Source: Schmidtea polychroa
Lineage: Eukaryota
DNA: 60,000 bases
NCBI GenBank assembly: GCA_044892525.1
Contig: CM097885.1
Span: 4,590,001-4,650,000 of the forward strand
Direction of reading: 5' to 3'
A model generated the notes under the pieces. The model was not told the DNA's origin, did no database searches, and saw only the letters and a list, made by a program, of their open reading frames with translations. Below are positions 26,234 to 43,617 of the stretch, piece by piece; the stretch's first letter is position 1; each line of letters opens with the position of its first letter. The position numbers and the translations under genes are program-made.

Positions 26234-28474
26234 TTAGTCCTCATCGGACAAAATAACGTCATCGATATCGATGTCATCTTCTTCATTAAATTCTTCCTCA
26301 TCTTCTCCAAAATCTTCATTTAATTCTTCCTCATCTTCTGCAACAATTTCTCCAACATTTTCTCCAATATTTAATTCACTTAATCTTACATGCCCATATG
26401 CAAGACTAGTATTTTTCCCCACCCAAACCCTTTTGTCATCTTTGTTAGTAAGTGCTATTTTTGTGTTTTTAATTGTAAAAATTTGATGATTTTTGCTTGT
26501 TATTTTAGTCTGAGGAACCGAAAAAATCTGGTTAGTGTTATAACAATCCAGGTATGACTGATGTTTTATGTCACTACCTTTCAATGTTACACCTTTAGCC
26601 TTTTTTGTTTCCTCATCACCCAACAAGCTATAATATTTAGGTCTAAGAAAAACCCACTCCTTATATTTAAGACCTTTATTCTCGTCTTTGAACTTTCCAA
26701 TGACTGAATCAAGGTTCTTACTATATAAGGAATGACAACTATTGTAATTGGAAGTATCCAATAAATTATCTCGAATCATTGCAGGTAAAAGAACCTCAAG
26801 TTTACAGTTAATGACTTCGAGGAAAAAGGAATCCGTATCACCCGCAACGATATTAATTTTACAATTAAACTCATTGCGAAATGATTTCAGATCCTTATAT
26901 TGCAATTCATACATTCTAAGTTTATATAGATCAAGTACAGATTGACCAATGTAACTCGGTCTATCTAAACATATAGAATCTGAATTCAATAGTGCTGCGA
27001 TTAAATTATCTGCTATTTTAATAGATTTTTTAAAAGTCGGTTTTGACGAATATTTAACTAATTTACCGGCAGTTGTACAAAGACGAAGATTCATTCTTCT
27101 CTTTAAATTTTCAACTGTTTTGCCGTATAAACTGTTATTTAGCAATTTATAATAATTTTTATCTAAGTTATTTATGCTTTTTGACCTTAATTCTGTATTT
27201 GTATCTATATATTTTATAAAAATTGGAGATTGCTTAAATCTTACACCCTTATTTACACGTGTTACTTTAACACCAAGTTCCAAATATAATTTTAATAATC
27301 TCCAATGAATCACATAATTAGATTTTGGAAGATGAGTTAATAATAATTTTTCAACCTTAGACCCAACAGGTTTCATTTTTTCAGCAGCTACAGGGAAATC
27401 ATCCAACTTATCATGAAGCTCAGATGGAATTACAAGATCAACTTCAAGAGTGTATCCATAAGACAAAGATTCAAGATTTAAATTCCTACATTCATCCATT
27501 ATTAAATCAAATCCATCAAGAACCCAACTAAATTCGCCACAAGGTAATGATTGACTTAAAGCCCAACCATAAAGATTATTAATATCTATATAAAGTAACT
27601 CGGTGTTCTCGTCGGTTTTTACGTAATGCTTATTCACAAAAGTAAGACCGCCTCTTATTCCACCCTCATAAAAGCTAAACATTTCGTTTTCAGTTATGAG
27701 CTCAATTGGTTCATTTAAAGACATTAATGCAGAAGACCAAGACATACCTGGAATTCCGAAATAATTCAATGGTTCCAATCTATTGTGAGCAATGGATTTC
27801 AACCGAAACTGATGAAAGAAATCAGCCAAAAGAAAACAATCAAGTTTTAGGTAGATCATCATATAATCTAATAAAGTTACGCAGTTAGTTTCTACCCAAA
27901 TCTCCTGAGCTTTTTCATACTCAAGCTCAGTGACACCCTCCCAGATTGGTGGTAATTCATAATTAGTTTGGAGAATATATAAAGAAGTGGGGAAATTATA
28001 AGGGAAGATTCCTTTTTCAGAAACTATAGTACCAGAAAAAGCAGAATTAGTAAAAGGCAAAGAATTCAAAGTTTTGACTGCTTTAGCTAAAGAATCATTG
28101 ACAAATTGATAAGAATCAATGAATCTTAAGCTAATTTTGCCTTAATGAGCAATCAAAGAAATAAATTTTTCAGTCGTTATTGGGATGCAACCTAAAGTCC
28201 AATTTCAAATTTATTTAATCCGTATTTAAGTATATGATGCATATCGTATCCCTTCAAGTTATGAAATACGATAGCAAAATTTTATTTATTTTCCTATTTA
28301 TGTCACAAGTGCTACAAGCTGCACCCAAGTATTTCCCCGTAAAATGATCGTGATCTCTAACAGGATCGACGATAGATTTCAAACAAAGATAGCAAACGGA
28401 AGCACTAAGAAATTGATGTTGTTCAATTTTCGTTAATTTAATCATAGGTTTCCTACCCATTTTATAATAAAAAG
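26234..28474 (-). pseudogene. pPolB of element B, C-terminal part
   Basis: YYKMGRKPM..RDHDHFTGKYLGAAC, frameshifts ~28070-28260, then a 611-aa ORF with YIDINNLYG, KLLNNSLYGK, GDTDS. Confidence 0.92.
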
Positions 28475-29503
28475 AGTAGTGTGTATATATACCCAACCAA
28501 CACAGCCCTCCCAACAGAAACATACCTCCATTACGCTTATACCATTAGAAAAACAACCTAAAACTTATACTTTTATAGTATTTTAACCCTATATTTTTGA
28601 AAACAACCACCCTTAATCTTTAAAGCCTCAAACTCAAAAGCTTCAAACTAAAAAGAGAATAGAAAAGAAAATGGCATTATGAAAAAGTTAGAGGGCTATT
28701 TGGGATAGGGCTATATACACACTACTTTTGATCGCAATCAAACTCCGGAGCATTATGAAAAAGTTAGAGGGCTATTTGGGTTAGGGCTATATACACACTA
28801 CTTTTGATCGCAATCAAACTCCGGAGTTAATCATTATCAGATTATTGATTTTAAATTATATAAATTAAAAAATAAATGAAAAATAGTAAAACTGCTCTGA
28901 GGGGACAGTGGTATTTTTTTTTTCACTGTCAACTCAACAGTTTTTTTGATCCGGATCATTTCAACCTCTTTCGTTTATCAAATCTCTTCTAATATACAAG
29001 CTGGCCAGACTCATACATCAGAATCAATCCGATAATAGCAGCACGCCTTATTATTCGCTTCTCGCTCACGAAGTCGATTTCATCGGCGTTTTAAGCGTAC
29101 AAAAGTACAAATGAATTCGAAAGCGAATCCGAAAGAGGTCCGAAAACAACTGAGAAATAAATGTGCACATTAAAGAATCGATCCGGGGGTGTTCGAAAGA
29201 CTGGTGGCGATAATTACCGGTTCGCCACCATCACCCGTTTCAATAATTTTTTTTTCATATTTATGTTTAAAAAATAAAATAAAATAAAATAAATAAAATA
29301 AATAAAATAAATAAAATAAAATAAAATATACAACTACTTTATAAATCTAAGATACCCACACTATTATTTTCAAATTTTTAATATTATTTTATGTTGAAAA
29401 AAAACTAACCACAGTTAGGATTTGAACCGCTATCCATTTGAACCACTGTGCCAGTCTAGCCCACTGCGCTATCTAGGTTTGGATTTTTGTTATTTTTTAG
29501 ACT
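28475..29503 (+). repeat. Left TIR of element C (contains a 76-bp tandem duplication)
   Basis: Reverse complement of 42675-43617. Confidence 0.93.
29397..29480 (-). ncRNA. Putative Pol III small RNA unit (in left TIR)
   Basis: A-box TAGCGCAGTGG (29471-29461), B-box GGTTCAAATCC (29428-29418), T8 terminator. Confidence 0.6.
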
Positions 29504-29725
29504 ATAAATAATCGATTCAAGTTCTTTAACTCTTTCCTGTAATTGTTTCATTTTCTTCAATCTTATATCAGCAACATCTACAGCCTTCATATAAAAATGT
29601 CGATACTTTTCATTATCTACTATCAACTCTTTGATGTATTCTAATGGTTCTTCTTCTCTTCTTTTCATTCTCTTATGTTTAACTTCATTCAATTCATTTC
29701 TCATTCTTTCTTTTAACTCATCCAT
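29456..29725 (-). CDS. 89-aa charged coiled-coil protein
   Basis: ORF with AAAATG start context, stop inside the TIR. Confidence 0.5.
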   Translation of the reverse strand: MDELKERMRNELNEVKHKRMKRREEEPLEYIKELIVDNEKYRHFYMKAVDVADIRLKKMKQLQERVKELESIIYSLKNNKNPNLDSAVG

Positions 29726-29881
29726 TTTTATAAATATTTTTTTATTGGATATATTAATTTTTGGTAGTTAAAACGTTTTTGATCTTAAATTTCCAAGAGT
29801 TGCCGTTGACCAATATCCTTAAAAATTTGTACAAGTACTAAATCGAGTATGCTGATCAATATTTCGTTAAAAAAATATTTG

Positions 29882-29962
29882 AAAAAAAATGACCGAAATG
29901 GGATTTGAACCCATTGGTATTGGCAATGCAGTCGAGTGCTATTACCACTAAGCTATTAGAGC
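29882..29962 (-). ncRNA. tRNA-like (Cys-GCA-like 5' half) putative Pol III unit
   Basis: TAGCTTAGTGG A-box, CGACTGCA, perfect T-arm ATGGG-TTCAAAT-CCCAT, T8; acceptor stem only 5/7 paired. Confidence 0.6.
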
Positions 29963-30124
29963 TATACTCAATATAAAATAAGTTGTTAATGTGTGACTAT
30001 TTATTGATGAAATTAATAATTAATTAATCATTTTCTCGACAACTACCACTCAGATCCATCTGAAAATTTAAATATATACTAAAATCAGTACGCTGAATCA
30101 TATTCCGTTGAAAAAAAAATATCG

Positions 30125-30206
30125 AAAAAAATTGACCAAAATCGAAAATTGAACCCGGTACTCCCGGTGATAAAATTGAAGCCTATTCCCACTCCGCTAT
30201 AATGGC
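30125..30206 (-). ncRNA. Diverged paralog of the 29882-29962 Pol III-like unit
   Basis: A-box TAGCGGAGTGG, degenerate B-box GGTTCAATTTT 33 nt later, T7; downstream flank duplicated. Confidence 0.45.
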
Positions 30207-30262
30207 TTACAAAATATATTTAATTAATCCTATTGTGTGTGTGTAAATTTTAATATATAAAA

Positions 30263-31555
30263 ATGAATAATATAAATCTTAAAATTCAAGAAAAAAATAA
30301 ATTAAATCTTGATTATAATAAAGAATTTACTCGTGAAATCAAGAAAAACGATGTACTTAAAATATCCCCAACTTCAGGATCTATTGCAAACTTAAATCGT
30401 AGGGGTGATATAGTTTTTCAATCTCTTCAAACATCAAACCCAATAGATATTTGTAATGCCAAATTATATTATAAAATTGAATTAGAAATTGAAGCAAACA
30501 AAGATATAACCCTAGAAAATAATTTCTTTCCAAATTTATTCTCCAACATGAGATTAAAACTAGGATCATCAGAAATTGAAACTGTTTTACATCCAGGAGT
30601 ATATTCTACAATGTTAAATTTTATTTTGACTGGTTGTGATTATAAAAATGAATATGGTGAATTAACAGGCTGGATTCCTGATGTTAATAAAGGGGATTTA
30701 GATAAAGATGGTTTAGATATAAATTATGGTTACTATAAAAGAGCTGAACTTTATAAATCTAAAAAATTTGAAGGTTATTTTGAATTAAAACACTTGTTTG
30801 GATTCCTTCAAAACTATAATCGTATACTTCATAATGTTTTTATAGAATTAGTTTGTAATAGAGTAGAAGGTGATAAAAGATTGTTCTATGGAGATAAGGA
30901 TACAACAGCTAAATTAAAAATATCAACACTTGAATTGCATATACCTGAATGGACATTAAATCCACATTCTGAAATCAAACTCCTTGAAAGATTAAATTCC
31001 AACAAGTCTATAAATGTAAATTATTTAAATAGAATCTGTAGTGAATTTAGTATGACAGAGGGTTCAACATATTCTATAAAGGTAGCAAATTTAGCATACC
31101 GACCAAGATATATCTTGATTGGATTCAAAGAAGTAGATTCATCTTTCCAAAAAAATAACAACTTGTTTATTCAAAAGATTGGAGATGATAATTTAAAAAC
31201 AATCCAAATTCAATTAAATAGTTCTTATTATCCAATAAATAGAATGGAATTTAATATTGAAAATAATGAAAACATATTCCCATATCTAAATTATATTGAA
31301 ACATGTTATGATTTCAAAGTTGAACCACAATTAAGTTTAGAAGATTTCAAAAATTTATATTCTATATTTTGTATAAATGTATCAGATCAAGATGATAGAT
31401 TAGCCATAAATAATGTTGATGTTACACTTCATGTAACAAAGGATTCTAATTTCAAAGCTAAAGTATATACATTAATATTAGAAGAAAAGAAAATAGAAAT
31501 GAAATTATATGGTGGAAAGATTTCAATTATTGAAAATATTAGGGGAGATTCTTAA
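30263..31555 (+). CDS. Major capsid protein of element C
   Basis: 430 aa; NNFFPNLFS..LKLG..EIE..HPG, LKHLFGF, RPRYILIGF, QLNSSYYP, IFCINVS; Polinton MCP pattern and context. Confidence 0.85.
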   Translation: MNNINLKIQEKNKLNLDYNKEFTREIKKNDVLKISPTSGSIANLNRRGDIVFQSLQTSNPIDICNAKLYYKIELEIEANKDITLENNFFPNLFSNMRLKLGSSEIETVLHPGVYSTMLNFILTGCDYKNEYGELTGWIPDVNKGDLDKDGLDINYGYYKRAELYKSKKFEGYFELKHLFGFLQNYNRILHNVFIELVCNRVEGDKRLFYGDKDTTAKLKISTLELHIPEWTLNPHSEIKLLERLNSNKSINVNYLNRICSEFSMTEGSTYSIKVANLAYRPRYILIGFKEVDSSFQKNNNLFIQKIGDDNLKTIQIQLNSSYYPINRMEFNIENNENIFPYLNYIETCYDFKVEPQLSLEDFKNLYSIFCINVSDQDDRLAINNVDVTLHVTKDSNFKAKVYTLILEEKKIEMKLYGGKISIIENIRGDS

Positions 31556-31572
31556 TATTTTAACATTTTAAA

Positions 31573-33012
31573 ATGTCTCTAAATAAACCGTATTGGAGAT
31601 GTGAAACTTGTAATTGTCAAGTTACAAAACATCACAAAGCAAATCATTTAAAAACTAAAAAACACATACTTGGATCAAATACTAATTCTTGGTTAGAACC
31701 CAATCCTTCAAGTAGATTTGCTTTTGAGAATCAACTCTTTGAAGGAGGTGATCTACAATCTTCAAAAACAACATCTTCAATATTAAAACCTTTTACTACA
31801 GAAAAATATCCAGGTGAAAGACATTTATTTAAACACAACTATACCGGACCAGGAACAAGATTAGATATTAGATTAGATGAAAAAATTAATCCTAAACAAG
31901 GAGAAGAACCAATAAATAGAATTGATCAAGCAGCTTTAAAACATGATATTGCTTACAATTCAGAAGATCTTAGAGATAGACATGTTGCAGATGTTAATTT
32001 AATACATGATTTAAATAGTATCCAAAATCCATCAACCCAAGAAAAGATTCAAAGAGCTCTAGTTAAATTAGCAATGAAAGGTAAGATTTTCATAGGTGCT
32101 AGTTTACCAAGGATGGCAAAAGATGTTGCAAATAAAAAGATTATTGAACAAGCAGATGCTGAAAGATCCCTCGAGAATATATCCAAGACTAGTTTATTAA
32201 CCCCAACAGAATCACAAATAAAATATGCCAACGAATTACACCATGAATTTAGAAAAAATAAAAAATATTTAAAAGTTCAAGTACATGAAAAAGATCAAAC
32301 ATGGTCTGCAGATTTAGTCTTTATGCCAACCAAATCATCAGTTCCTGAAAAATATAAAATAATTTTAACTGTAATAGATTTATATACAAGATTTGCCTTT
32401 GCAAGGTGTTTAGAAAATAAAACAGGATATTCCATTACAGAAGCATTTGAAAATATATTTGAAGAACATCAAAGAATTTCAAAATATTTATGGAGTGATA
32501 AAGGAACAGAATTTTATAACAAAGTTTTTACAAAGTTTTTAAATGAAAATGATATTAAATTATATTCAACAGAAAACGAAGGAAAAGCAGTTGTGGTTGA
32601 AAGATTAAATAGAACATTAAAAAGTAAAATGTGGAAATATTTTACGGCTATTGGAAAACAAAAATGGAACAATGAATTGTTACAAAAGATTGTAAATGAA
32701 TATAATAATGATGTACATAGTTCTATAAAATCAACACCTTTAAATGCTTCCATGAATCCTGAAACCATTAAAGTGGTAAATATTGAAAATGATGTTATTG
32801 AAAAACCAAAGTTTAAAATTAGTGACCGAGTAAGAATATTTAAATATAAAAATAAATTTGAAAAAGGATTCACTGCAAAATGGACAAATGAAATTTTTAT
32901 TATAAATAAAATACATTATACAACTCCAATAACATATAGCATCATTGATTTAAATAATGAAAAAATATTAGGTAGATTTTATAATAATGAGTTACAGAAA
33001 ACAGATTTTTAA
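31573..33012 (+). CDS. C2H2 zinc finger + parvovirus-type PLA2 + integrase fusion
   Basis: CETC..HLKTKKH; NYTGPGT..NRIDQAALKHDIAY..RHVAD; WSADL, IDLYTRFA, SDKGTEF, VERLNRTLK, GRFYNNELQ. Confidence 0.9.
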   Translation: MSLNKPYWRCETCNCQVTKHHKANHLKTKKHILGSNTNSWLEPNPSSRFAFENQLFEGGDLQSSKTTSSILKPFTTEKYPGERHLFKHNYTGPGTRLDIRLDEKINPKQGEEPINRIDQAALKHDIAYNSEDLRDRHVADVNLIHDLNSIQNPSTQEKIQRALVKLAMKGKIFIGASLPRMAKDVANKKIIEQADAERSLENISKTSLLTPTESQIKYANELHHEFRKNKKYLKVQVHEKDQTWSADLVFMPTKSSVPEKYKIILTVIDLYTRFAFARCLENKTGYSITEAFENIFEEHQRISKYLWSDKGTEFYNKVFTKFLNENDIKLYSTENEGKAVVVERLNRTLKSKMWKYFTAIGKQKWNNELLQKIVNEYNNDVHSSIKSTPLNASMNPETIKVVNIENDVIEKPKFKISDRVRIFKYKNKFEKGFTAKWTNEIFIINKIHYTTPITYSIIDLNNEKILGRFYNNELQKTDF

Positions 33013-33023
33013 GTCGACAAGCC

Positions 33024-33890
33024 CTAAAATAAACTTTTCCATATTTCAGCTTCTTCTCTATCCAAATAAATATAATTATATTTTTCTTTCCAATGATTAT
33101 CAACAAACATATCAAACATATTCTTATCAGGTTCAACATTTGAAAATAAATCATTATAAATCATATTCTTATCACGGCGATCTAATTTAAAAAATATAAA
33201 ACAATTAGAATTATTTCTTATAGAGTTTTTATCTAAAGCATAATATGTTTGAGATATATAAATAACATTACAATTATTATGTCTTCCTCTTGTAAAGTAA
33301 CTCTTTTGAATCTCTTGGTTTTTCATATTGACAACATCATCAAATATAACTAGATTCTTTTTATCTTTAGGAAGTAAATCACAATGCAAAACATCTTCAG
33401 ATTTATTAGAGAATAAAACTTGAATCGCCTCTGCCTGCCCCTCATCTTCACAGATGTAATCATTTTTATTACTAATATCTGATTCTAAAATCTTTTCCTT
33501 ATACCAATCAACCATATCACAAGGTTGAAAAACTTCTTCAGGACATCTATGTTGATTTTTAAAAATATCAATTATAACTTTTTTAGTTAATTTATTTTCA
33601 AATCCACATTTCAAAAGTTGTAATTCTGGTTGATTTATGGTTGTAGAGTAAAGGATTAAATTATTATAATCTAAAAAACCATCTTCAAGCAACATTTTCA
33701 AAACAAGTACATTCTTTCCACATCCAGAAGAACCAACAATTAATAATCTAAAATTATCAGGAAATACTTTATTATTAAATTTAGATTTATGTCTATTTAA
33801 AATTGGTTTCCAAATTATTGGACTTCGTACATCCATTTTATTTATTATAAAATGACCTCGAAGAGTTCCTCTATTGAAGAATCTTTGCAA
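33024..33890 (-). CDS. Packaging ATPase of element C
   Basis: IVGSSGCGKN (atypical N), LVIFDDV, FTRGRH.NCNVIYISQ, IRNNSN; likely start ~33836. Confidence 0.88.
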   Translation of the reverse strand: MQRFFNRGTLRGHFIINKMDVRSPIIWKPILNRHKSKFNNKVFPDNFRLLIVGSSGCGKNVLVLKMLLEDGFLDYNNLILYSTTINQPELQLLKCGFENKLTKKVIIDIFKNQHRCPEEVFQPCDMVDWYKEKILESDISNKNDYICEDEGQAEAIQVLFSNKSEDVLHCDLLPKDKKNLVIFDDVVNMKNQEIQKSYFTRGRHNNCNVIYISQTYYALDKNSIRNNSNCFIFFKLDRRDKNMIYNDLFSNVEPDKNMFDMFVDNHWKEKYNYIYLDREEAEIWKSLF

Positions 33891-34463
33891 GAATTAATAA
33901 ATTCAAATAAAAATAAATCAGTAGTAATTGATGGTAAAAAATATTTTATTGGAAAAAAACATGTAAAAGAACAAGTTAGAGCGAAGATTAAAGAAGGTGG
34001 CATTCTTCCATTAGCTGCTTTAATACCTGCAATCATTGCTGGTTTATCAGGTGCTGCTGGAATAGCTGGAGGAATTGCAACTACAGTTCAAAAAGCTAAA
34101 GAATCTCAAAAGACAGACCTAGAAAAAGAAAAATTACAAACTGAAATCGATTCAATAAAAAAGAAGGGAGTGTCCGAAGGTCAAAAGTCCGTTGGAAAAG
34201 GTCTCTATCTTAATCCATATCAGAAAGTGTCCGAAGGTCAAAAGTCTCAGGGGAGTTCCTCCGTTGAAAAGGGTCTCTATCTTGATCCTTATAAAGGCCG
34301 CGGTTTAAATGATTTTTTAAAAAATCAAATTTCATCATCTGAATCTTTATCTTCAAAAGATAAAGATGATTTAAAAAAAATGTGTAAATCTTTAAAGAAT
34401 AGATGCCTTTGTAAAACTAAAAATGGTAAAGGATTATATTTAAAACCTTGGAAGGAACCATGA
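33852..34463 (+). CDS. Core/membrane-active protein (GG + hydrophobic helix, GKGLYL.P repeats)
   Basis: KEGGILPLAALIPAIIAGLSGAAGIAGGIA; three KGLYLxP motifs. Confidence 0.65.
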   Translation: MTSKSSSIEESLQELINSNKNKSVVIDGKKYFIGKKHVKEQVRAKIKEGGILPLAALIPAIIAGLSGAAGIAGGIATTVQKAKESQKTDLEKEKLQTEIDSIKKKGVSEGQKSVGKGLYLNPYQKVSEGQKSQGSSSVEKGLYLDPYKGRGLNDFLKNQISSSESLSSKDKDDLKKMCKSLKNRCLCKTKNGKGLYLKPWKEP

Positions 34464-34485
34464 TACCATTTTTGATACCATTAAA

Positions 34486-35352
34486 ATGGTATATGAAGAA
34501 AGATTAGCACTTTTAAAAAAATTACAATCAGAACAAAACAAGTATAATAAAAAAGATACAACTCAACATGCTGAATCTATAATATTAAATGAGGTAATCC
34601 AAAAACAACAAGGACCAACAATTAAAGCTATAAAAGGATTAAATGAGCAAGCAAAATTTAAAGAGTTGGAAGATAAAAAACAAAAAATAAAAGAATTGGA
34701 GTGGGAGAAAGAATCCACTGAAAATCATCCTGAAAGTCATTCTGAAAGAAATCAAAGAAAACGTAGAAGAACCTCTAATGTGGAAGAAGAAGAAATGTTT
34801 TTAAAAACAAAACCTCTTAAAGTTAATCCTAAAATTAGAGAAGGTTTAAGTGATTAAATTAAACCCACATTTCATATTAATTCTGAAGGATATTCAATAA
34901 TAACAATCAATAAACAAAACTTTACTTTATATACAACTCCAGAAAATAAATCACATATTCATTTACAAAATGTTTATAATAATGAATATTTAAACTTTGA
35001 ATTTACAGATGATTTTTATAGATTACTTTGTGGATATCCTTCAGATGATGTTGAAGAAATTAAAAAATATTTAAATTTTATAAGATCAATAAAAGCTAGT
35101 TCAAAAGCAAAACACATTCAAGATTTAAAGAAATATTTAGATAGAAATGAAAAGGGTTATGTTGTTAAAGAAGGTGATGGTATTAGGGTTAAACCAAACT
35201 CAATCAACCTTTTTATTGAATTAAGAAAACTATTAGCAGCTAAAAAAGCAGGTCATAATAATTTAGATTCTGATATTTTAAAGATTTCTAAAGATTTGTT
35301 AAAACAAGGAATAATTTCAAAAGATAAATTTAATAAGTATACGAAGTTATAA
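34486..35352 (+). pseudogene. Conserved Polinton protein with one in-frame stop (34855-34857)
   Basis: Frame continues past TAA to ELRKLLAAKKAGHNN..LLKQGIISK. Confidence 0.6.
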
Positions 35353-35374
35353 ATACAAAGTTATAAAATATAAA

Positions 35375-35839
35375 ATGACTAATCCTTCAATATTAGATTT
35401 TTTAAAAACATTTGGAATAAATGCAAAAACAAATTTTGATTTAAAAGATTATGCAAATTATTTAAATTTAAAAATAAAAATATTAATGAATGATGAATTA
35501 TCAAGTCTGAAAGATATTCTGAAAGAAGACACTCAAAAGAAACGAAGTCCCCTGAATATTATTATAAATTATCAAAATTCAAATGAGAAAGGATCTCATT
35601 GGGTTTGTATATATAAGAAATCTATCTACTTTGATTCTTTTGGGATTAAACCTACTAAAGAAGTTGAAGACTATCTCTCGAGGGGTTCCACTTTTAATTC
35701 TTTACAAGTTCAACCTAATAATACTAAAATATGTGGTATTATAAGTTTATATGTTTTGTATAGATTGAATAAATCCAAAGGAGAAGGTTTCACTTCCTTA
35801 ATCCAAGAAATTTATAATGATTTAAAATCTCTATTATGA
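35375..35839 (+). CDS. Adenain-like cysteine protease of element C
   Basis: GSHWVC, YFDSFG, QVQPNNTKICG. Confidence 0.88.
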   Translation: MTNPSILDFLKTFGINAKTNFDLKDYANYLNLKIKILMNDELSSLKDILKEDTQKKRSPLNIIINYQNSNEKGSHWVCIYKKSIYFDSFGIKPTKEVEDYLSRGSTFNSLQVQPNNTKICGIISLYVLYRLNKSKGEGFTSLIQEIYNDLKSLL

Positions 35840-36597
35840 AAATAGAGCTTCGCAACCTTCTGGAAGATAATTTAAAAAAAATGGTAAACATAATGTCAGA
35901 TAAATATTCAAGAACTTTATCTATAAATTCAAAAGAATCAGACTTTACTATAAACTTTCAAGATTCAATAAAATTAGATCAAAATTTAAATTATGAATTG
36001 GGGCTATTATGGTTTTGTGCTTATAATACTATTTTTAATATAACTAAAGATATTAACACATTTAGTTATGTAAGCCCCCCAAAAACGGAGTATAACATAA
36101 TAATAATAGAACCCGGGGCTTATGAGATAAAAGATTTAAATAATATACTTTCTAAAAAAACAAATGGAGCTATTGAAATTAAAATAGATTTACCAACTTC
36201 AAAATGTATAATGACTTTAAAGAATATAGGACTTAGGTTTCAAAATAATAGTTTCTTTAGAACAATTTTAGGATTTACACAAAACCATTATACCACACCT
36301 GAAGTTACATCAGAAAATATTATAAAAATAATAAATACAAACACAATAAATATTCATTGCGATTGTATAACAGGTTCTTATAATAATGGTAAACAAAGTA
36401 ATATTTTATATTCCTTTCCCTCAAACACAGTTCCTATGGGATATAAAATAGTTGAAAGAATGAATCCTCCAAATTATTTACCTTTATGTAGAAAATATAT
36501 AATGGATATTAATTTTAAAATTCTTAATCAAGAAGGAGAATTGATTGATTTTAATGGAGAAGAGATTTCAATGTATTTACATTTGAAACAGGTTTGA
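35836..36597 (+). CDS. Minor capsid protein (penton) of element C
   Basis: IEPGAYEI, ILGF, INIHCDCITGSYNNG..ILYSF...VPMGYKIVE, NQEGELIDFNGEEI. Confidence 0.82.
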   Translation: MKIELRNLLEDNLKKMVNIMSDKYSRTLSINSKESDFTINFQDSIKLDQNLNYELGLLWFCAYNTIFNITKDINTFSYVSPPKTEYNIIIIEPGAYEIKDLNNILSKKTNGAIEIKIDLPTSKCIMTLKNIGLRFQNNSFFRTILGFTQNHYTTPEVTSENIIKIINTNTINIHCDCITGSYNNGKQSNILYSFPSNTVPMGYKIVERMNPPNYLPLCRKYIMDINFKILNQEGELIDFNGEEISMYLHLKQV

Positions 36598-36621
36598 AGA
36601 TTCATTTTAAATTATTAATAA

Positions 36622-37599
36622 ATGAGTTCTTATATTCCTTGTAATAGAGGTGGTGGAACAATAAAAACAGGGTTTAATACAGAAGAAATATTAACTTTAA
36701 CAGAAAATAAATATATTAATGAAAGAGGTGATTCAATGAAGGGAGATTTAAATTTAAATGGACACAAGATAAAAGATTTATCTTTACCAATTGATGAAGG
36801 TGATGCAGTTAATAAAAATTATACTGATTTAACAACAACAAGAATTGAAAGTTCATTAACAACAAAAATTGATTCAATGGAATCAAAGCTTAATAATATC
36901 GAACAACGATTTAATGATAAATTTGACAAGTTACAAAGTCTGTTAACTGAACAAGTTGTAAAGGTAAATACTAGTATATTAAATTCTAAAGATAAACAAA
37001 TTATGAATACTAAATTTAATACAATATATAATATAATAAATGAGATGATTACATCATTTAATAAAAGACTTTCAAATTTAGAATCTCATACAACACACAT
37101 TAACACCACACATAGTATTAGAAAAAGAGCTGCTGAATTAGAACAGAATAAAACATTATTACCCCATACATATAAACATTTTATAGAACCAACTTTAATA
37201 ACGACAAATAGTAAAGAATGGAGTGTTTTTATGGTTGTAAAGATTATTGATCCTTATTTCTTTTTATTTGATGATGATAATGAAAGAATGAAATGGTTTG
37301 TGAAATGTGATTATAATAGTAAGTTTGAAAAGGGTGATGTTATAATAAGTGGTTATGATTTAACACATGGATATTGGCATGATAAAACTGATTCACATAA
37401 AACACATAAAGTTAAAAGTAAGAATATTATTTTTAAAAGCACACTTGTACAATATATAGATTTAATATTTTATGAAAAAAAGGTTGATGTTGATGAAGTT
37501 CGTAAAGCATTGATGGAATTGTATAAAGACATTCTCTCAACCAGAGTCTCTTATGATATCCGAGTATTGGTACCAGATAATAAAATCTTATTTTTTTAA
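36622..37599 (+). CDS. Fiber/spike-like protein
   Basis: GDSMKGDLNLNGHKIKDLSLPIDEGDAVNKNY (tail-fiber/neck-type motif), coiled coil, C-terminal beta-rich domain; follows the penton. Confidence 0.6.
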   Translation: MSSYIPCNRGGGTIKTGFNTEEILTLTENKYINERGDSMKGDLNLNGHKIKDLSLPIDEGDAVNKNYTDLTTTRIESSLTTKIDSMESKLNNIEQRFNDKFDKLQSLLTEQVVKVNTSILNSKDKQIMNTKFNTIYNIINEMITSFNKRLSNLESHTTHINTTHSIRKRAAELEQNKTLLPHTYKHFIEPTLITTNSKEWSVFMVVKIIDPYFFLFDDDNERMKWFVKCDYNSKFEKGDVIISGYDLTHGYWHDKTDSHKTHKVKSKNIIFKSTLVQYIDLIFYEKKVDVDEVRKALMELYKDILSTRVSYDIRVLVPDNKILFF

Positions 37600-37607
37600 T
37601 TATTAAA

Positions 37608-38200
37608 ATGGAAGAAGTAAGAGAAGAAAAAGTTTACCCAGAATTGTCATCAGGATATTATTCCCCCAGACCTTCGAGACCTTCAGCTCCCACAGAACTT
37701 GAAATTATGAGAGTAAAAGAATTTAAATCAGAAACCTTACATTTACAAGATTTATTAAAGCATTATAAAAAAATTAAAAATAGATGGAATAAAAGGAATA
37801 CAGTTTTAAAAGTTATAGGTTATTCTTTAGGATTTGCATCTGCAATATTAACAGTTATTTTACCTATAACTTTACCAGTTTTAACACATGCGCCTGTAAT
37901 ACTTGGAAGTATTTCTGTAGCTGATGGTTTCTTAACTGAAATAGTTTCATTATCTTATACTTCAAAAAAGAAAAGTTTATATCGTGAAGTTTGTTTGTCA
38001 ATAGAATTAGGAATCTCTAAATAATTTTAATTTCAATTAAAAGCTTTGGAAGATGGAATCTTAACTGATGATGAAATAATGAAATCAAATCAAATAATAC
38101 AAGATATTAAAAATAATATTAATAGATTAAAAAGTGCTAATGTTATAACTAATGAATATTCTAAAAAAATTAAACGGGAGAAATGGTTAAAGAATTCTTA
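37608..38200 (+). pseudogene. Two-TM membrane protein, interrupted by a stop at 38022-38024
   Basis: Hydrophobic VIGYSLGFASAILTVILPITLPVL..VILGSISV; KALEDGILTDDE continues after the stop. Confidence 0.5.
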
Positions 38201-38285
38201 TTTATAAAATGGGTGTATTTTAAAAAAAGTAGATCAGGTTGCTATAGTTGCTTAAATTAATTGTCGACATTTTATTATTAAAAAA

Positions 38286-41200
38286 TTAAATATCGTTGAA
38301 AGCCAACCTTTGAATCATTAATTTATGATTTTTAAATTCTTTATCACTTAGACCTTTTATATATTCAGGATCAGTATTAAAATATTTAAGTTCTAAACAT
38401 ATAGGATTAAAAACTTGAGAATATAAAGGCTTCTCGATTTCTCTCTCGGGATAAATGATTTCAACATTATAAATATCAAAATCAGTAATTTTTGTATCAT
38501 ATAACTTATTCAACTTTTCTAGATTTTTTATTATAGGGATTAAATTATTTCCTATAGGAAGAGTTGTCTTTAAATCACTTAGGATGAATCTCTTATCATC
38601 ATAATTTGATAATGATACTTTTTGAGATTCTATCAAGTGAATATCATGGTTTTCGCTTTTAATCTGATGCACTTCATCAATTTTATCTTTATGATTTGGA
38701 TTCAATGTATCTATATAATCTTGATGAGAAAGATTCTTTGCAACGGATTTCTGTATTCCTTTACATCTGTTATCCTTTACAGGTTTTTCTTCTTGTCCCT
38801 CTGGTCCTTTAGGGAATATAGGATATTTAAATGAAATAATTTCCTCTTTTTCTGGGGTTTTAAATATAATTTCTCGGGTTATAAATTCAGGGTTTTTAAA
38901 TGTTTCGTATGAATATTGTTTAGCACGAATAAATATTCCATTTTCTATAAGAGTAAAAGGTTTTTCATCTTTAAATGAAAATAATTCTCCAGTTGAATTT
39001 ATTAAATTTGAAAGTATAGGATTTTCAGCTATATCTCTTTGTAAATCATGAGTTCTTATTGTTAAAAACATTGAATCTGTATCCATTGCATGCATTGATA
39101 TATTAGAACCATATATAGGTTGTAAGATGTTATAATATGTTTCATACATTTGTAATTTTGAAAGTTCTAAAATTGAAAACCCTATAAATATTGGTTTGTT
39201 GTATGTTTTCTCAAAACTCTTTAGTTCTATTGCAGTAAGACTTTCAGAAAATACTTGTGCGTTTTTAAATGTAGGCTTTCCTAGCATACGATTATAACGC
39301 TTAATATCTTTGGTAGTATTTGTTAGGAGTTCAATATGAGTATATTTATCAACATTCTCCATTGTCTTCCCAAAGACTGAATTGTTTAAAAGTTTATAAT
39401 TATTATCTTTAAAAAGGTTACCTTCTCTTTTTGCAATGTTTCGACATCTAATGTTCTCCTCGATAAAAGCTTTCATGAATGGCCTCTGTTTAAATCTTAT
39501 GACACTATGAACTTTTTTTAATATCATACCTCGTAAAAGATAAAATTGGAGGAGTCTATAGTGACAAAGATAAAACCTTCGATCTGTTTGATCACAAAGA
39601 AGTTTCATTGTTGGGGGTTTATCTTGTGAGATTTGCCATTCAGAAAGTTCGTTGATATCAATTTTTCTTCTTACAGGAGCTAATGGGAAATATCTTGTTC
39701 CTGATTTTATATCATCTGGATATAATAAGTCACATTCTACAAAGTAACCTATTGGAGAATCTTTAGGTGTTGAAAGTATTTCTTTTATAACTTCTTTTGA
39801 TGATTCTATTTCAATGAAATCACCCATTGGTAAATATTGAGTCATAATTCCTGAATATAACGCTGTTGCATCTATATAAAGTATAAATATAGGATTTTTC
39901 ATTGTTTCTAATAATTCTTTTAATTCCTCATTGTTAATTTTTATATATAGATCAGAGGTCTTTGAAAGCATTCTGCTAGTAGTTATTGCATTTCTAGCTT
40001 TTATTTCTCTATTCCCCATTACTGAAGAGACTCCTCCTCTAATGTTTGTTTTAATTAGATTAAACATATCGAGGTTAGTTAAAAGATCTATAATTTTATC
40101 AGCTTCTTCTATATTTGAAGTCCAAATGGTATATAATAAAGTATCCCAAGCTAAAGAGGGTGCTGTTATATAATTGTAAGGTTTAAGAACAAAAGATTTT
40201 GTAAATTCTTCAAAGCAATCTGCTAGAATATAAACATCCAAGGATAAATACATACTTGTATATTCTCCTAAAGTTTTACACTTGAATAATTCCCACATTT
40301 TATTTGCTCGAGAATATTCTTGATTTGTAATATGATTTTTTTGAAGTTGTGAATAGAAATCTTCTTGGCTAGGAAGACTTGTTTCATTATATCTTTCAAA
40401 CGAGTCAACATAGTCATAAGGATATATTCCTTTTGCTAAACATGTAGGATATTCTTCTAGAGGAATATTATTTTTTTCCAAGAATTCTCGAGTGATTTTA
40501 AAATCTTCTGGTTTCATTGTTTTAGCTATTCCATCTAGAGACATTTGAAGAAAGTTTAACGAGTCTATAAATTTTAATTTTCCATATTCAACTGATTTAT
40601 ATTTTTCCTTTGTAAGTCCTATAACTTTGAAAGAGTTTTTAGCATTTGCTGCTAAATGTTTAATAAATAGATGTATGTCATAACCAAAAAGATTATGAAA
40701 TATAACAGGTACAAATTTAGGAGTATGACAATTAAGATTACAATCTTTATGAGCTGCTCCTCGATAATTATTTTCCTTTTTTAAATGATCATGATCGAGG
40801 ACTTTTATATTCGGAGACTCTTCAAATGGTTGTTTACACATCCAATAGTTGGAAGTGTTTTCATATTCTTGTTGTTGTTGATTAGAAATATTTTGAGGAT
40901 AGTTTGTTTTTAATACTTTAAATATTTCATGTTCTAGATCATTTATACTTTTAGTAAAATGATTCAAGACTTCTGTTTCTGAAATTCCTTGAAATGTATA
41001 TTCTCTAGATTCTATGAGTTCAGGATAATTACTTTTAAATAATAATTTATAAGCAGATGGTAATTGTTTAGTTTTTTTAACACTATTAGGTTTATTCCTT
41101 TTTCTTAGAAAGGCTTTCATCCTCTCTGGTTTCATCTTCTCTCCTGAGGAGTTCCAGGAATCCATGAGTTTATTTTTTTCTATTATTTTTAAATATTGTT

Positions 41201-42600
41201 TAACCAAATCTTGTTTACGATTTATAGATTCAAAGTCCCCATAAAGCACTCCTACTGTTTGTAGTAAATTTGAAAAGTTTTTAAAATACATCTTGGGATT
41301 ATTAGGCATTTTAATTAAAGCTGGATCATCTTTTGCACAAAATCTTGTATGTTTAATCATAGAGTTTTTAGTTGTTGAATAATGAAGACATCTTTTACAT
41401 GTTCCTCCTCCACTAGTTGGATTCTCTGGTGATGTAAAAGCTTGAAAGTTTTTTATTAAAACATAATGTTGATTATTTTGTTGTTCCAAGATTAAAAGAT
41501 ATATCTCCCTAGTGTTATCCTGTGGTTCATTATCTCTAACTTCATAATCTGAAATATAAATTGGAATAATTTCTCTGCTATTAACATGTTTCCCTTTAAC
41601 ACGTTCATAAATATTAATTTTAAGATTATTTAAACTTTCAAATTTTGGAATGTCTTCTAGTTTCATTGGATGTTTGAATCCTTTGGGAAATATTAATTCA
41701 TTTTCATATTGTTTGTATTTTGAAACTCTTTGAGGGTTTGATTCTTGAGGGTGTAAATGTGCAAGTATTGACCAGACGAAACATTTGTTATCATTATTCT
41801 GTATGTTTATAACATTTTTAGATTTAAAGGGTGTAGGAATATAAGATTTAGGATTAGGTGGTAATCCTCTCCAATAATCAATCACTAAAGTTTGGAAAGA
41901 GTTGAATACTAAGTTTGAATCTCCTAATTCATTTTCAACCTCTTCTTGTTTTGCTTCTACTGCTTGAATTATTTCTTTGATGGTTTTATCAAATCCTTTA
42001 GTTGAAAATAAATATTTAAAGGGTATTCCAATTTCAACATCTAAAGGTGTTGTCTTTTCTTCTGCTCCTCGCCAGTATTTTGCTTTGATTATAATTTTAT
42101 ATTTTATAACATTATACCTTGTCGGTTTATAATTTTTTAAAGCTTCAGTGAAAGAATTTTTAATATTTTTTTTATTTTTATTTATATATTCTCCAGGAGT
42201 TATAGGTCCATTGATTTCTAATTGAAATTCATCTACATGATTAAAATCATCCCAGTTATATTTTTCTCTTTCAACATGATCAGGTTCTCCTTCTGAATGA
42301 CATTCCTCATCGTCAGAATTTTGTTTTTTATTTTTACATTCTTTTATATGTTCTAAATAATAGAAATTTAGTTTTGTTGAAAAGTTACAATGAGAACATG
42401 TAAATATTTCTCTATTTTTCCCAATACAATTTTCAAAATGTTTATTATATCCAGAATGTAGAAATCTTCCTTTACATTTAGGACAAACCTTTTAATTTGT
42501 ATCATTAAGATTGTTTTCTTTTAATAAATGAGCTTTCGATTTTAAGTGAGAAATTAATCCAGTTTTATTTTTAAAAACTATTACAAATATTACAATTCAT
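38286..42600 (-). CDS. pPolB of element C (open from ~42490; N-terminal zinc fingers with small lesions)
   Basis: YGDFES, LDHDH..YRGAAHKDCN, FHNLFGYD, YLSLDVYIL, YIDATALYS, KLLNNSVFGK, MDTDS; upstream CPKC/CSHC..H fingers in frame. Confidence 0.95.
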
Positions 42601-42674
42601 TTTTAGAAAAAAATTTTTTATTGGATATCCTGTTTTGATTTTTTATGTTTTTATATTTATTTTCATAATGTCAC

Positions 42675-43617
42675 AGTATAAAAAATAACAAAAATCCAAA
42701 CATAGATAGCGCAGTGGGCTAGACTGGCACCGTGGTTCAAATGGATAGCGGTTCAAATCCTAACTGTGGTTAGTTTTTTTTCAACATAAAATAATATTAA
42801 AAATTTGAAAATAATAGTGTGGGTATCTTAGATTTATAAAGTAGTTGTATATTTTATTTTATTTTATTTATTTTATTTTATTTTATTTTTTAAACATAAA
42901 TATGAAAAAAAAATTATTGAAACGGGTGATGGTGGCGAACCGGTAATTATCGCCACCAGTCTTTCGAACACCCCCGGATCGATTCTTTAATGTGCACATT
43001 TATTTCTCAGTTGTTTTCGGACCTCTTTCGGATTCGCTTTCGAATTCATTTGTACTTTCGAGCAGCACGCTTAAAACGCCGATGAAATCGTATTCGAGCG
43101 AGAAGCGAATAATAAGGTGTGCTGCTATTATCGAATTGATTCTGATGTATGAGTCTGGCCAGCTTGTATATTAGAAGAGATTTGATAAACGAAAGAGGTT
43201 GAAATGATCCGGATCAAAAAAACTGTTGAGGGGACAGTGAAAAAAAAAAAAAAATACCACTGTCCCCTCAGAGCAGTTTTACTATTTTTCATTTATTTTT
43301 TAATTTATATAATTTAAAATCAATAATCTGATAAAGATTAACTCCGGAGTTTGATTGCGATCAAAAGTAGTGTGTATATAGCCCTATCCCAAATAGCCCT
43401 CTAACCTTTTCATAATGCCATTTTCTTTTCTATTCTCTTTTTAGTTTGAAGCTTTTGAGTTTGAGGCTTTAAAGATTAAGGGTGGTTGTTTTCAAAAATA
43501 TAGGGTTAAAATACTATAAAAGTATAAGTTTTAGGTTGTTTTTCTAATGGTATAAGCGTAATGGAGGTATGTTTTTGTTGGGAGGGCTGTGTTGGTTGGG
43601 TATATATACACACTACT
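42675..43617 (-). repeat. Right TIR of element C
   Basis: Reverse complement of 28475-29503. Confidence 0.93.
42698..42781 (+). ncRNA. Putative Pol III small RNA unit (right TIR copy)
   Basis: A-box 42707-42717, B-box 42750-42760, T-run 42774-42781. Confidence 0.6.

Follow-up and report, generated by a model that had tools for sequence, protein, structure and literature searches.

Results

A Polinton with tRNA-like units next to its capsid gene

The window, by which we mean the whole 60-kb stretch of Schmidtea polychroa DNA that was analysed, carries a Polinton/Maverick element (termed Polinton C, Table 1) in which genes for pPolB, an rve integrase, a double jelly-roll (DJR) capsid and an A32/FtsK-type ATPase are enclosed by TIRs of ~1 kb each and by a 6-bp TSD. 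The Pfam gene assignments, the TIRs and the TSD agree that this is a real Polinton, as had been claimed from a first reading of the sequence. The minus strand carries three units with tRNA-type promoter boxes (U1, U2 and the left copy of U3) between the capsid ATG and the left TIR, and U3 lies inside the TIR. U1 is divergent to the capsid gene, with 57 nt between its 5′ end and the capsid ATG, and the left U3 contains an additional fused A/B-like box at 29453-29440.

Table 1. Coordinates of Polinton C and of its features, as positions in the window.
Feature	Position	Strand	Details
TSD AAAAAG copies	28469-28474 and 43618-43623		Read at the element termini
Polinton/Maverick C	28475..43617		15,143 bp; 6-bp TSD AAAAAG
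Left TIR	28475..29503		Contains U3 and 9-bp hairpin; inverted-repeat pairs, 96-99% complementary
9-bp hairpin	29202..29230	minus	TIR copy 42930-42958; fold z -1.76
U3 left, tRNA-like, in TIR	29406..29480	minus	A box 29471-29461; B box 29428-29418; T8 29397-29404
Small ORF, 89 aa, Lys/Glu-rich	29456..29725	minus	Between U2 and U3
484-bp accessory module with U1 and U2	29762..30245	minus	Missing in some family copies; direct repeat AAAATT at borders
U2, degenerate tRNA pseudogene-like	29890..29962	minus	A box 29955-29945; B box GGTTCAAATCC 29911-29901; T8 29882-29889
U1, tRNA-like	30134..30206	minus	A box TAGCGGAGTGG 30199-30189; B box GGTTCAATTTT 30155-30145, degenerate; T7 30125-30131
DJR capsid	30263-31555		Pfam, E 4e-27
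rve integrase with PLA2-like domain	31573-33012		Pfam
A32-type ATPase	33024-33836		Pfam
pPolB	38286-41666		Pfam
Right TIR	42675..43617		Inverted-repeat pairs
U3 right, TIR copy of U3	42698..42772	plus, outward-facing	A box 42707-42717; B box 42750-42760; T8 42774-42781

The accessory module that holds U1 and U2 consists of two diverged tandem repeats with a spacing of 244 bp. The final codons of the small ORF between U2 and U3 extend into U3 in the window copy; in other copies of the family this ORF ends upstream of the TIR at a stop codon of its own and shows conservative residue changes.

Promoter boxes and terminators exceed chance expectation

Type-2 Pol III units have an A box (TRGCNNAGTGG) and a B box (GGTTCRANTCC) placed ~30-60 nt apart. 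The A box matches this consensus at 11/11 positions in U1, U2 and U3, the B box matches at 11/11 in U2 and U3 and at 8/11 in U1, and the gaps between the boxes are 33, 33 and 32 nt, respectively. U1-U3 have in this sense the boxes and spacing of a type-2 promoter and also its terminator, as the runs of T7, T8 and T8 begin 0-2 nt past the ends of U1, U2 and U3. Host tRNA genes are comparable in this respect, with T6-T7 runs located 3-5 nt past their 3′ ends.

The A-box pattern TRGCNNAGTGG occurs five times in the 60 kb, where 0.13 matches are expected, and all five fall within units; a relaxed B-box pattern (GGTTCRAWTYY) occurs six times against 0.95 expected, with four of the six in units. Neither count was reached in any of 100 shuffles. 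The composite pattern AGTGG-N30-37-GGTTCRANT-N8-20-T6 locates exactly four sites in the window (U1, U2, U3 left and U3 right), and no shuffle of the 100 contained a match. The box motifs, spacing and terminators of the units are far above chance. When the A/B-box patterns, the composite pattern and Rfam were applied to the remaining Polintons of the window, no tRNA-like unit was found in them.

The original prediction proposed four minus-strand box pairs at tRNA spacing, the first three ending in T7-T8 runs and the outer two repeated in the opposite TIR, for a total of six units per element. All four pairs exist at their positions, the tRNA spacing and the terminators are borne out for the three co-oriented units, and the outer two pairs do reside in the TIR and recur on the right side. 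The total is corrected to four good units, with the fourth pair dropped. In that pair (29227-29174), each box misses two fixed consensus positions (9/11 by eye), no T run is present, and the supposed A box is one arm of the 9-bp hairpin; it was rejected as a tRNA-type unit on these grounds.

Residual tRNA character of the units

Only U2 is recognized as a tRNA by Rfam: its RF00005 score of 32.4 bits exceeds the gathering score of 29, with E 0.0066 over the whole window. In the Rfam alignment, U2 pairs 5/7 positions of the acceptor stem, 3/4 of the D stem, 2/5 of the anticodon stem and 5/5 of the T stem, and its anticodon loop reads GCA, whereas relaxed ARAGORN gives another anticodon. The 63 host tRNA matches that were scored reached 62.6-74.1 bits. 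U1, U3 and the fourth motif pair gave no Rfam tRNA match at E<=10 in the window, and U3 gave none in any of eight family loci. ARAGORN detected no tRNA gene at default settings, and U1 was detected only at a relaxed threshold of 80%. The expectation that Infernal would return a pseudogene or no call at all was thus right for U1 and U3, but U2 passes the tRNA threshold. With its broken anticodon stem and no default ARAGORN call, U2 does not look like an intact tRNA gene.

Minimum-free-energy folds contained no cloverleaf in any unit, in agreement with the original prediction. Compared with shuffled sequences, U1 and U3 fold no better than chance (z 0.16 and -0.09), and U2 folds moderately better (z -2.45) without forming a long duplex. 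The ends of the commoner version of U3 in the family can pair in a stem of ~9 bp, and the window U3 has no such stem. No Rfam family other than tRNA was matched in the window at E<=1. No sequencing run recorded as RNA was found to contain the stretch; of four further data sets (X1-X4), which yielded assembled contigs of uncertain RNA status, X1 and X2 overlap parts of the region in a form that carries no information on transcript start, end, strand or level.

Relationships among the units and to host tRNA genes

U1 is a paralogue of U2 over ~155 nt, with 17/22 box positions and 56/70 positions of the non-tRNA downstream flank identical. U2 and U3 have the same 11/11 B box and the terminator in common, and the sequence between their boxes cannot be aligned. 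Their B box is the identical 11-mer found in host tRNA-Cys genes, and the A box of U2 differs from that of host tRNA-Cys at one position. By pattern search, the host has ~981 tRNA-Cys(GCA) genes in 281-bp tandem arrays. Because U2 is identical to host tRNA-Cys at 47/73 positions and to host tRNA-Lys at 51/73, a parent tRNA cannot be assigned.

Beyond matches of <=18 nt, the unit flanks contain nothing similar to the host tRNA arrays, and the inter-box parts have no complementarity longer than 13 nt to the rest of the window. The 34-mers of U1 and U2 and a 15-mer of U2 are absent from three supplementary files of a planarian tRNA table (PMC7962491). The U2 34-mer has no exact match in viral_contigs or in metagenome_contigs, and the capsid protein has no relative in either set.

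The units travel with the Polinton C family

Polinton C represents a young family of roughly 2,000 copies per genome. Counting 34-mers with up to two mismatches gave 2116 genome copies of U1, 3240 of U2, 1981 of U3 and 2185 of the capsid gene. All eight loci found with U2 are Polinton C copies. Among the 61 exact U2 copies on C1 (0-32.3 Mb), 58 are accompanied, at the expected offset, by the capsid or small-ORF marker, and the other three are truncated or rearranged family fragments, so that no solitary copy was seen and the independent dispersal that characterizes a tRNA-derived SINE was not observed. The units belong to the Polinton family and travel with the element, which agrees with the initial view that they are Polinton-encoded and speaks against a dispersed host tRNA-SINE. 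As a separate observation, another family of this genome has a 7SL RNA head.

We regard as extremely improbable the view that the units derive from a host tRNA-derived SINE insertion or that U2 is a working tRNA that compensates for codon usage: the AAAATT direct repeat that bounds the 484-bp module relative to copies without it, the Rfam score of U2 and the tRNAs reported in the available portion of a survey of polinton-like viruses and virophages (PMC12220804) would suit it, but family context surrounds every one of the 61 exact U2 copies examined, the module begins 42 nt ahead of the tRNA-like head and has no SINE tail, and U2 pairs only 2/5 of its anticodon stem, scores 32 bits where 63 host tRNAs score 62.6-74.1, and is not called by default ARAGORN.

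Variation among family copies was examined at 29 loci sampled by a capsid anchor, 21 of which were collinear and used for the conservation test. Four of the 29 copies lack both U1 and U2 and are still found at several genome locations; therefore, the internal units are not needed for spread. Unit number also varies through recombination or duplication between units (L055, L067 and tandem U3 pairs), a pattern expected of a generic, dose-like module more than of one specific RNA. A unit lies divergently 40-65 bp upstream of the capsid ATG in two architectures, formed by U3 in L040 and L042 and by U1 in the window type. In neither L050 nor L066 does a unit adjoin the capsid ATG, and U3 is ~370 bp away.

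The original prediction named boxes no more conserved than their flanks as an outcome that would count against it, and no excess was seen in the 21 collinear copies or in the comparison of U1 with U2. Columns with shared variants numbered 3 in U1, 8 in U2 and 12 in U3 per 81-83 nt, against a mean of 4.25 per 81 nt, the U2 figure being dominated by indels in a few copies (L056, L057 and L065). As far as can be tested, conservation of the units does not exceed that of the flanks, although the test has low power because the copies are young and differ by only a few percent. Among TIR variants that are 82-85% identical overall, the A box and B-box core of U3 are intact, save for one A-box change in L050.

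Discussion

Probably captured tRNA-type genes that may still recruit Pol III

Given the promoter signals and the decayed tRNA features, we consider U1-U3 to be, more likely than not, captured sequences derived from tRNA genes that have decayed as tRNAs, seemingly remain competent for TFIIIC and Pol III, and constitute a variable-copy accessory module of this Polinton lineage. The units appear to retain everything that a type-2 Pol III gene needs, namely both promoter boxes, spaced as in tRNA genes, and an oligo-T terminator at the 3′ end. Under the established rules for tRNA-type promoters, on which the following steps are based, TFIIIC would contact the B box and then the A box and would place TFIIIB ~30 bp upstream. 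Pol III would then start a few nucleotides ahead of the unit and stop in the T7-T8 run, yielding weakly structured RNAs of ~75-85 nt with an oligo-U tail. Such products could arise from up to four sites per element, each aimed at the nearer terminus.

What this competence would mean for the element can be graded. Neutral passenger activity has close to an even chance. An effect of TFIIIC/Pol III occupancy at the DNA level, by which the capsid/small-ORF promoter region and the inner TIR edges would be kept open or insulated, is a tentative proposal, and a function of the unit RNA itself, for example as a decoy, appears improbable. Even intact boxes could go unused should the element be heterochromatic in vivo.

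The strongest competing explanation, which we judge possible although not the likely one, is that the units are inert relics: tRNA genes or pseudogenes from a host that are decaying, are neither bound nor transcribed, and have intact boxes only because the family is young. The lack of conservation excess over the flanks, the degenerate B box of U1, the broken anticodon and acceptor stems, the dispensability of U1 and U2, and the loss by the window U3 of a stem kept in other copies are all consistent with decay. Were the units silent, they would be an ordinary case of captured, decaying tRNA genes. However, the neutral flank of U1 and U2 is ~20% diverged, yet both A boxes fit 9/9 fixed consensus positions, a T7-T8 run stands at the canonical place in 3/3 units, and U2 and U3 have a common 11/11 B box and terminator despite inter-box sequences that cannot be aligned. 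Moreover, the rules for type-2 promoters would imply binding unless chromatin prevents it.

A second alternative, which is rather unlikely, takes the units as TFIIIC-bound chromatin barriers or promoter-proximal elements that would keep spreading heterochromatin away from the inner TIR edges and from the promoter region of the capsid gene and small ORF. It would account for the divergent unit just upstream of the capsid ATG in two architectures, for boxes that are common to three paralogues whose inter-box sequence is not, for weakly structured predicted RNAs, and for a variable unit number. The role would be assigned by analogy with yeast and mammals, where tRNA genes act as chromatin barriers. 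The two copies (L050 and L066) with no unit next to the capsid ATG, and boxes conserved no better than their flanks, count against it. U3 is found at both element ends because it lies in the TIR, and its position there is not independent evidence for a barrier. In its favour, planarian Polintons are reported in two studies to be among the transposons most strongly repressed by piRNA-guided heterochromatin (PMC8532177, PMC10558129).

The barrier alternative suits the data somewhat better than a VA-RNA-like decoy, the main idea of the original prediction. Such Pol III transcripts would saturate or blunt an RNA-based defence, for example PKR, Dicer/Exportin-5 or the piRNA machinery. The sharing of internal promoter boxes and terminators with VA RNA genes, the evolutionary relationship of Polintons to adenoviruses, and the presence of several units per element and thousands per genome would be in keeping with a decoy. 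The analogy fails on structure: only 73-75 nt precede the first T run, compared with a length of ~160 nt for VA RNA, and folding of U1 and U3 is at shuffle level and that of U2 lacks a long duplex (z 0.16, -2.45 and -0.09 for U1-U3). The absence of any Rfam family except tRNA at E<=1, the free divergence of inter-box sequence among paralogues and the dispensability of U1 and U2 also argue against it, and we regard it as very improbable.

Novelty and implications

Full-text literature searches turned up no account of animal Polintons with Pol III or tRNA-like units, which agrees with the original suggestion that such units are undescribed. This holds for animal Polintons only: the accessible part of PMC12220804 reports tRNA genes in polinton-like viruses and virophages, and the claim of novelty must therefore be narrowed.

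If the units are active, a single family of transposons contributes Pol III promoters in the thousands, on a scale comparable with that of a SINE family but spread by a DNA virus-like element. This would matter for the distribution of TFIIIC and Pol III in the genome and for the reading of tRNA predictions and small-RNA mapping, and would bear on a possible use of Pol III products or factors by Polintons to counter host silencing, as in their adenovirus relatives. A bolder form of the proposal is that an animal Polinton (adintovirus-like) uses Pol III units of its own, one per TIR and up to two near the capsid promoter, against host silencing, either as tDNA-type barriers to piRNA-directed heterochromatin or as abundant small tRNA-like RNAs. 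This is unlikely. If true, some 7,000 TFIIIC/Pol III sites would have been added to the genome, the units would be to Polintons what Pol III non-coding RNA genes are to adenoviruses and herpesviruses, and the 7SL RNA head of the second family would turn the capture of Pol III genes into a recurrent strategy. Natural family variants with zero, one or two internal units make the question testable.

Comparison with known systems

Polinton-like viruses and virophages resemble Polinton C as small capsid-encoding relatives, some with pPolB, whose tRNA-type genes are presumably host-derived. In the portion of PMC12220804 available, 558 tRNAs are reported in ~8,300 genomes and interpreted as codon compensation; in PMC8502044, 'predicted tRNA genes' are flagged in a figure legend. 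As far as these partial sources go, the viral tRNAs are ordinary, whereas in Polinton C two of the three units fall short of the tRNA threshold and the anticodon stem of the one that passes is broken. Polinton C also differs, on the same sources, in having one unit in the TIR, an animal host and thousands of copies.

Adenovirus VA RNA I and II resemble the units in coming from Pol III genes whose A and B boxes are internal and which terminate in T runs, and they belong to the same wider virus lineage. VA RNA is ~160 nt long and forms a long imperfect duplex with an apical stem, central domain and terminal stem, and this duplex acts on PKR and Dicer. In contrast, the units are ~75 nt long, are predicted to be weakly structured, and have no similarity to VA RNA in sequence or by model.

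The TMERs (vtRNAs) of murid gammaherpesvirus 68 (MHV68) are likewise a co-oriented cluster of non-decoding tRNA-like Pol III genes, located close to one end of the linear genome of a DNA virus. TMERs keep a cloverleaf, which is followed by pre-miRNA hairpins and then the terminator; the units have no cloverleaf and their T7-T8 runs come directly after the tRNA-like part, so that they are not of the TMER type.

The heads of tRNA-derived SINEs and the insulators formed by tDNAs and SINEs share with the units the persistence of promoter boxes beyond the tRNA fold in decayed tRNA sequence, and a high copy number that provides many potential TFIIIC sites. The mode of multiplication differs, SINE copies being produced by retroposition and the unit copies by the Polinton itself.

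Host element and arrangement of the units

Polinton C, which carries the tRNA-like units U1, U2 and U3, is a complete Polinton/Maverick by its Pfam domains, terminal inverted repeats (TIRs) and target-site duplication (TSD). It lies in an AT-rich window (GC approximately 21-36% in 2-kb steps; C1:4590001-4650000, C1 being contig CM097885.1) of a 781-Mb assembly, in which matches were located on four very large contigs. Within the element, a phospholipase A2-like domain precedes the rve core in the integrase ORF, and coding-like sequence upstream of the pPolB ATG, on the same strand, may belong to pPolB, either as an N-terminal extension or as upstream exons. Contig depth in X1 and X2, which are assembled contigs from two sequencing runs whose RNA status is a guess, is by far highest over the GC-richer TIR part.

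A larger outer element encloses Polinton C. At two other loci (L069, C1:92700-98700, and L070, C1:109100-115100) the same 1.2-kb piece of the left end of Polinton C, corresponding to window positions 28827-30018 and carrying U2, U3 and the small ORF, sits between copies of the outer element's repeat region in inverted orientation, and its breakpoints are identical at the two loci. This suggests that a composite derivative was itself copied.

Features of Polinton C and its surroundings (window positions)
Feature	Position	Strand	Remarks
Outer element, inverted repeats	24855-25898 and 51415-51975		Bounds; long, rich in 30-nt tandem repeats
Outer element, flanking ORFs	26234-27862 and 43616-44860	minus	No Pfam match
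Polinton C	28475-43617		TSD AAAAAG, 6 bp
TIRs of Polinton C	28475-29503 and 42675-43617		96-99% complementary
GC-richer TIR part	28884-29246 (+ TIR copy)		Contains 9-bp hairpin
9-bp hairpin	29202-29230		Includes 'A box' of fourth motif pair
Fourth motif pair	29227-29174	minus	
U3	29480-29406	minus	
Small ORF	29456-29725	minus	89 aa, Lys/Glu-rich
U2	29962-29890	minus	
U1	30206-30134	minus	
Double jelly-roll capsid gene	30263-31555		PF21738, E 4e-27
rve integrase with PLA2-like domain	31573-33012		Pfam; PLA2-like domain PF08398, E 3e-9
A32-type ATPase	33024-33836		Pfam
pPolB	38286-41666	minus	Pfam
Coding-like sequence	41669-42490	minus	Cys/His-rich motifs
U3 right (TIR copy of U3)	42698-42772	plus	

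Every unit is on the strand that reads toward the nearer terminus. U1 and U2, which lie 244 bp apart, form a diverged tandem pair of paralogues and can be aligned over approximately 155 nt (the 73-nt unit with about 20 nt before it and about 60 nt after it), with identities of 9/11 in the A box, 8/11 in the B box, 19/33 between the boxes and 56/70 downstream. U3 has in common with U2 the A-box consensus, all 11 B-box positions and a terminator followed by CAA; its inter-box sequence is unrelated to that of U2 and includes a second, fused A/B-like box. U1 and the capsid gene are divergently oriented, with 57 nt separating the capsid ATG from the 5′ end of U1. Between U2 and U3 is the small ORF, which likewise diverges from the capsid gene. 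Other family copies keep this ORF with conservative residue changes and its own stop approximately 37 nt before the TIR, and in the window copy a deletion joins its end to the TIR and U3.

Promoter boxes, terminators and tRNA likeness

The original prediction named four pairs of A-box and B-box motifs, and all four are present in the sequence where it placed them. Three of these pairs are far beyond chance. The A-box pattern matches the window five times (0.13 expected), always within units, and the B-box pattern six times (0.95 expected), four of them within units. A composite pattern, in which the A-box core is followed after 30-37 nt by a B box and after a further 8-20 nt by T6, occurs at exactly four sites, which are U1, U2 and the left and right copies of U3, and at none in 100 shuffles. 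The gap between the boxes (33 nt in U1 and U2, 32 nt in U3) matches tRNA geometry, and the runs of T7 (U1), T8 (U2) and T8 (U3) start 0-2 nt past the expected end of a 73-nt tRNA; in the host's own tRNA genes, T6-T7 runs follow 3-5 nt past the gene end. The fourth pair does not hold up as a tRNA-type unit, having both boxes off consensus, no T run and an 'A box' that is one arm of a hairpin. There are therefore four good units per element rather than the six proposed.

With Rfam at E ≤ 1, U2 and nothing else in the window gives a match, an alignment of 32.4 bits against the tRNA gathering score of 29, where a pseudo or absent tRNA call had been expected. In this alignment the T arm is perfect, and 5/7 acceptor, 3/4 D and only 2/5 anticodon pairs are formed. 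Host tRNA matches score 62.6-74.1 bits (n = 63). No Rfam tRNA match was obtained for U1 or U3 at E ≤ 10. ARAGORN found no gene at default settings, and at a relaxed threshold it reported U1 and U2 as units of 73 nt, assigning them anticodons at odds with the Rfam reading. As originally stated, no unit folds into a full cloverleaf, and the folding of U1 and U3 is not better than that of shuffled sequence.

We infer that the units are tRNA-derived. U2 is identical to host tRNA-Lys at 51/73 positions and to host tRNA-Cys at 47/73, so that neither stands out as the parent, and the B-box 11-mer of host tRNA-Cys(GCA), a tRNA with approximately 981 genes (pattern matches) in 281-bp tandem arrays, is that of U2 and U3. 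The flanks of the units show no resemblance, beyond matches of at most 18 nt, to the host tRNA arrays that were compared. Host tRNA arrays are very large, with units of approximately 281 bp (Cys-GCA), 424 bp (Lys-UUU) and 278 bp (Arg-UCG), and are found at C1:269250638-269286377, C4:76658343-76669437, C140, C333 and C474.

The units belong to the Polinton family

The units belong to the Polinton C family and not to the host. All eight loci retrieved with a U2 query are copies of this Polinton region, with 94.6-96.6% identity over 2.5-2.7 kb. Genome-wide, 34-mers with at most two mismatches gave 3240 matches for U2, 2116 for U1 and 1981 for the window version of U3; markers for the capsid gene and the small ORF gave 2185 and 1398, and the reversed-pattern controls had 0 matches. 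Copy locations come from the matches listed (100 per 34-mer), all exact and on C1. Among these, 39 of 61 exact U2 copies in C1:0-32.3 Mb are accompanied by both markers at the offset and in the orientation expected, 14 by the capsid marker alone, five by the ORF marker alone and three by neither, and the fetched sequences of the last three are truncated or rearranged family fragments. Exact U2 also stands beside 53 of the 100 exact capsid-marker copies listed. A dispersed tRNA-SINE is excluded as far as the 61 copies go, because all 61 are family copies or fragments.

Within the family, the unit content varies. Among 29 copies with a capsid anchor, a sample biased toward copies most like the window, U1 is present at 80% coverage or more in 25, U2 in 23, U3 in 28 and the hairpin in 27, and both U1 and U2 are missing from four. 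At L040 and L042 the U3-bearing TIR runs directly up to the region upstream of the capsid gene, which puts U3 where the window has U1; at L050 and L066 TIR and capsid gene are separated by the small ORF alone; L054 lacks this ORF. Recombinants are seen at L055 (U1/U2) and L067 (U1/U3), and tandem U3 pairs approximately 232 bp apart occur at six places among the matches listed (100 exact). Set against L050 and L066, the 484-bp module with U1 and U2 has a direct repeat, AAAATT, at its borders, which fits an insertion as well as a deletion between short repeats. The units are therefore a recombining, dispensable module of variable number.

Selection on the units

Evidence for selection is weak and mostly negative. 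In 21 collinear copies, columns with a variant shared by at least two copies number 3/81 in U1, 8/81 in U2 (mostly one 12-nt deletion common to copies) and 12/83 in U3, against a mean of 4.25 per 81 nt elsewhere, placing the units at the 53rd, 87th and 96th percentiles of variability. Substitutions in U2 are all singletons among 30 loci, eight of which were chosen for identical U2. Between U1 and U2 the boxes are not better kept than the non-tRNA flank, an outcome that the original prediction had counted against itself if joined by an absence of transcripts and of Pol III occupancy. The test on family copies has low power in either direction, because young-family copies mostly record neutral decay after insertion. 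Some constraint is suggested by the A boxes of U1 and U2, which fit every fixed consensus position in a pair approximately 20% diverged, by the terminators kept in all three units, and by the B-box core of U3, unchanged in 35/35 readable loci including TIR variants just 82-85% identical overall.

Proposed function and relation to known systems

U2 and U3 qualify by their sequence as complete type-2 Pol III genes, and U1 does so less surely. On the established rules for type-2 promoters (TFIIIC binding, TFIIIB placement and a Pol III transcript ending in a T run), TFIIIC would bind the B and A boxes, TFIIIB would be positioned upstream of the unit, and Pol III would make a short transcript. The predicted RNAs, of approximately 75-85 nt with an oligo-U tail, would retain at best a tRNA 'top half' (acceptor and T arm in U2). 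On balance, the units are probably element-borne, tRNA-derived and competent for Pol III/TFIIIC. Their most likely role is neutral activity. Next comes an effect at the DNA level, in which TFIIIC/Pol III would occupy sites next to the capsid promoter and along the edges of the TIRs. A decoy role for the RNA is least likely, because the predicted RNAs lack a VA-type long duplex and differ freely from one paralogue to another.

Another locus, L074, has at 2457-2586 (C1:134456-134585) a weak but specific match to Metazoa_SRP (7SL) of 30.4 bits (threshold 70, E 3.5e-5), of which the first 44 nt or so align well. Its flanks resemble the TIR region of Polinton A, another Polinton in the window (6800-6980 and 20300-20490), and not Polinton C. 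We interpret this piece, with its SRP score below threshold, as a second Pol III-gene derivative, in another Polinton-type family of this genome.

Passages of two studies count planarian Polintons with the transposons on which repression by piRNA-guided heterochromatin is strongest (PMC8532177, PMC10558129). U1 and U2 are absent from the passages and three supplementary files consulted of a planarian tRNA survey (PMC7962491). Full-text searches outside subscription journals gave no description of animal Polintons with Pol III or tRNA-like units. As excerpted, one study counts 558 tRNAs in approximately 8,300 polinton-like virus and virophage genomes and interprets them as codon compensation (PMC12220804), and a figure legend marks predicted tRNA genes in some related viruses (PMC8502044). 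The Pol III-type units of the original prediction are real, tRNA-derived and owned by the Polinton; their analogy with VA RNA is not established, the long duplex that defines VA RNA being missing from the predicted RNAs. Virus- and transposon-borne genes of tRNA type are already known, and the units of Polinton C are a variant of these.
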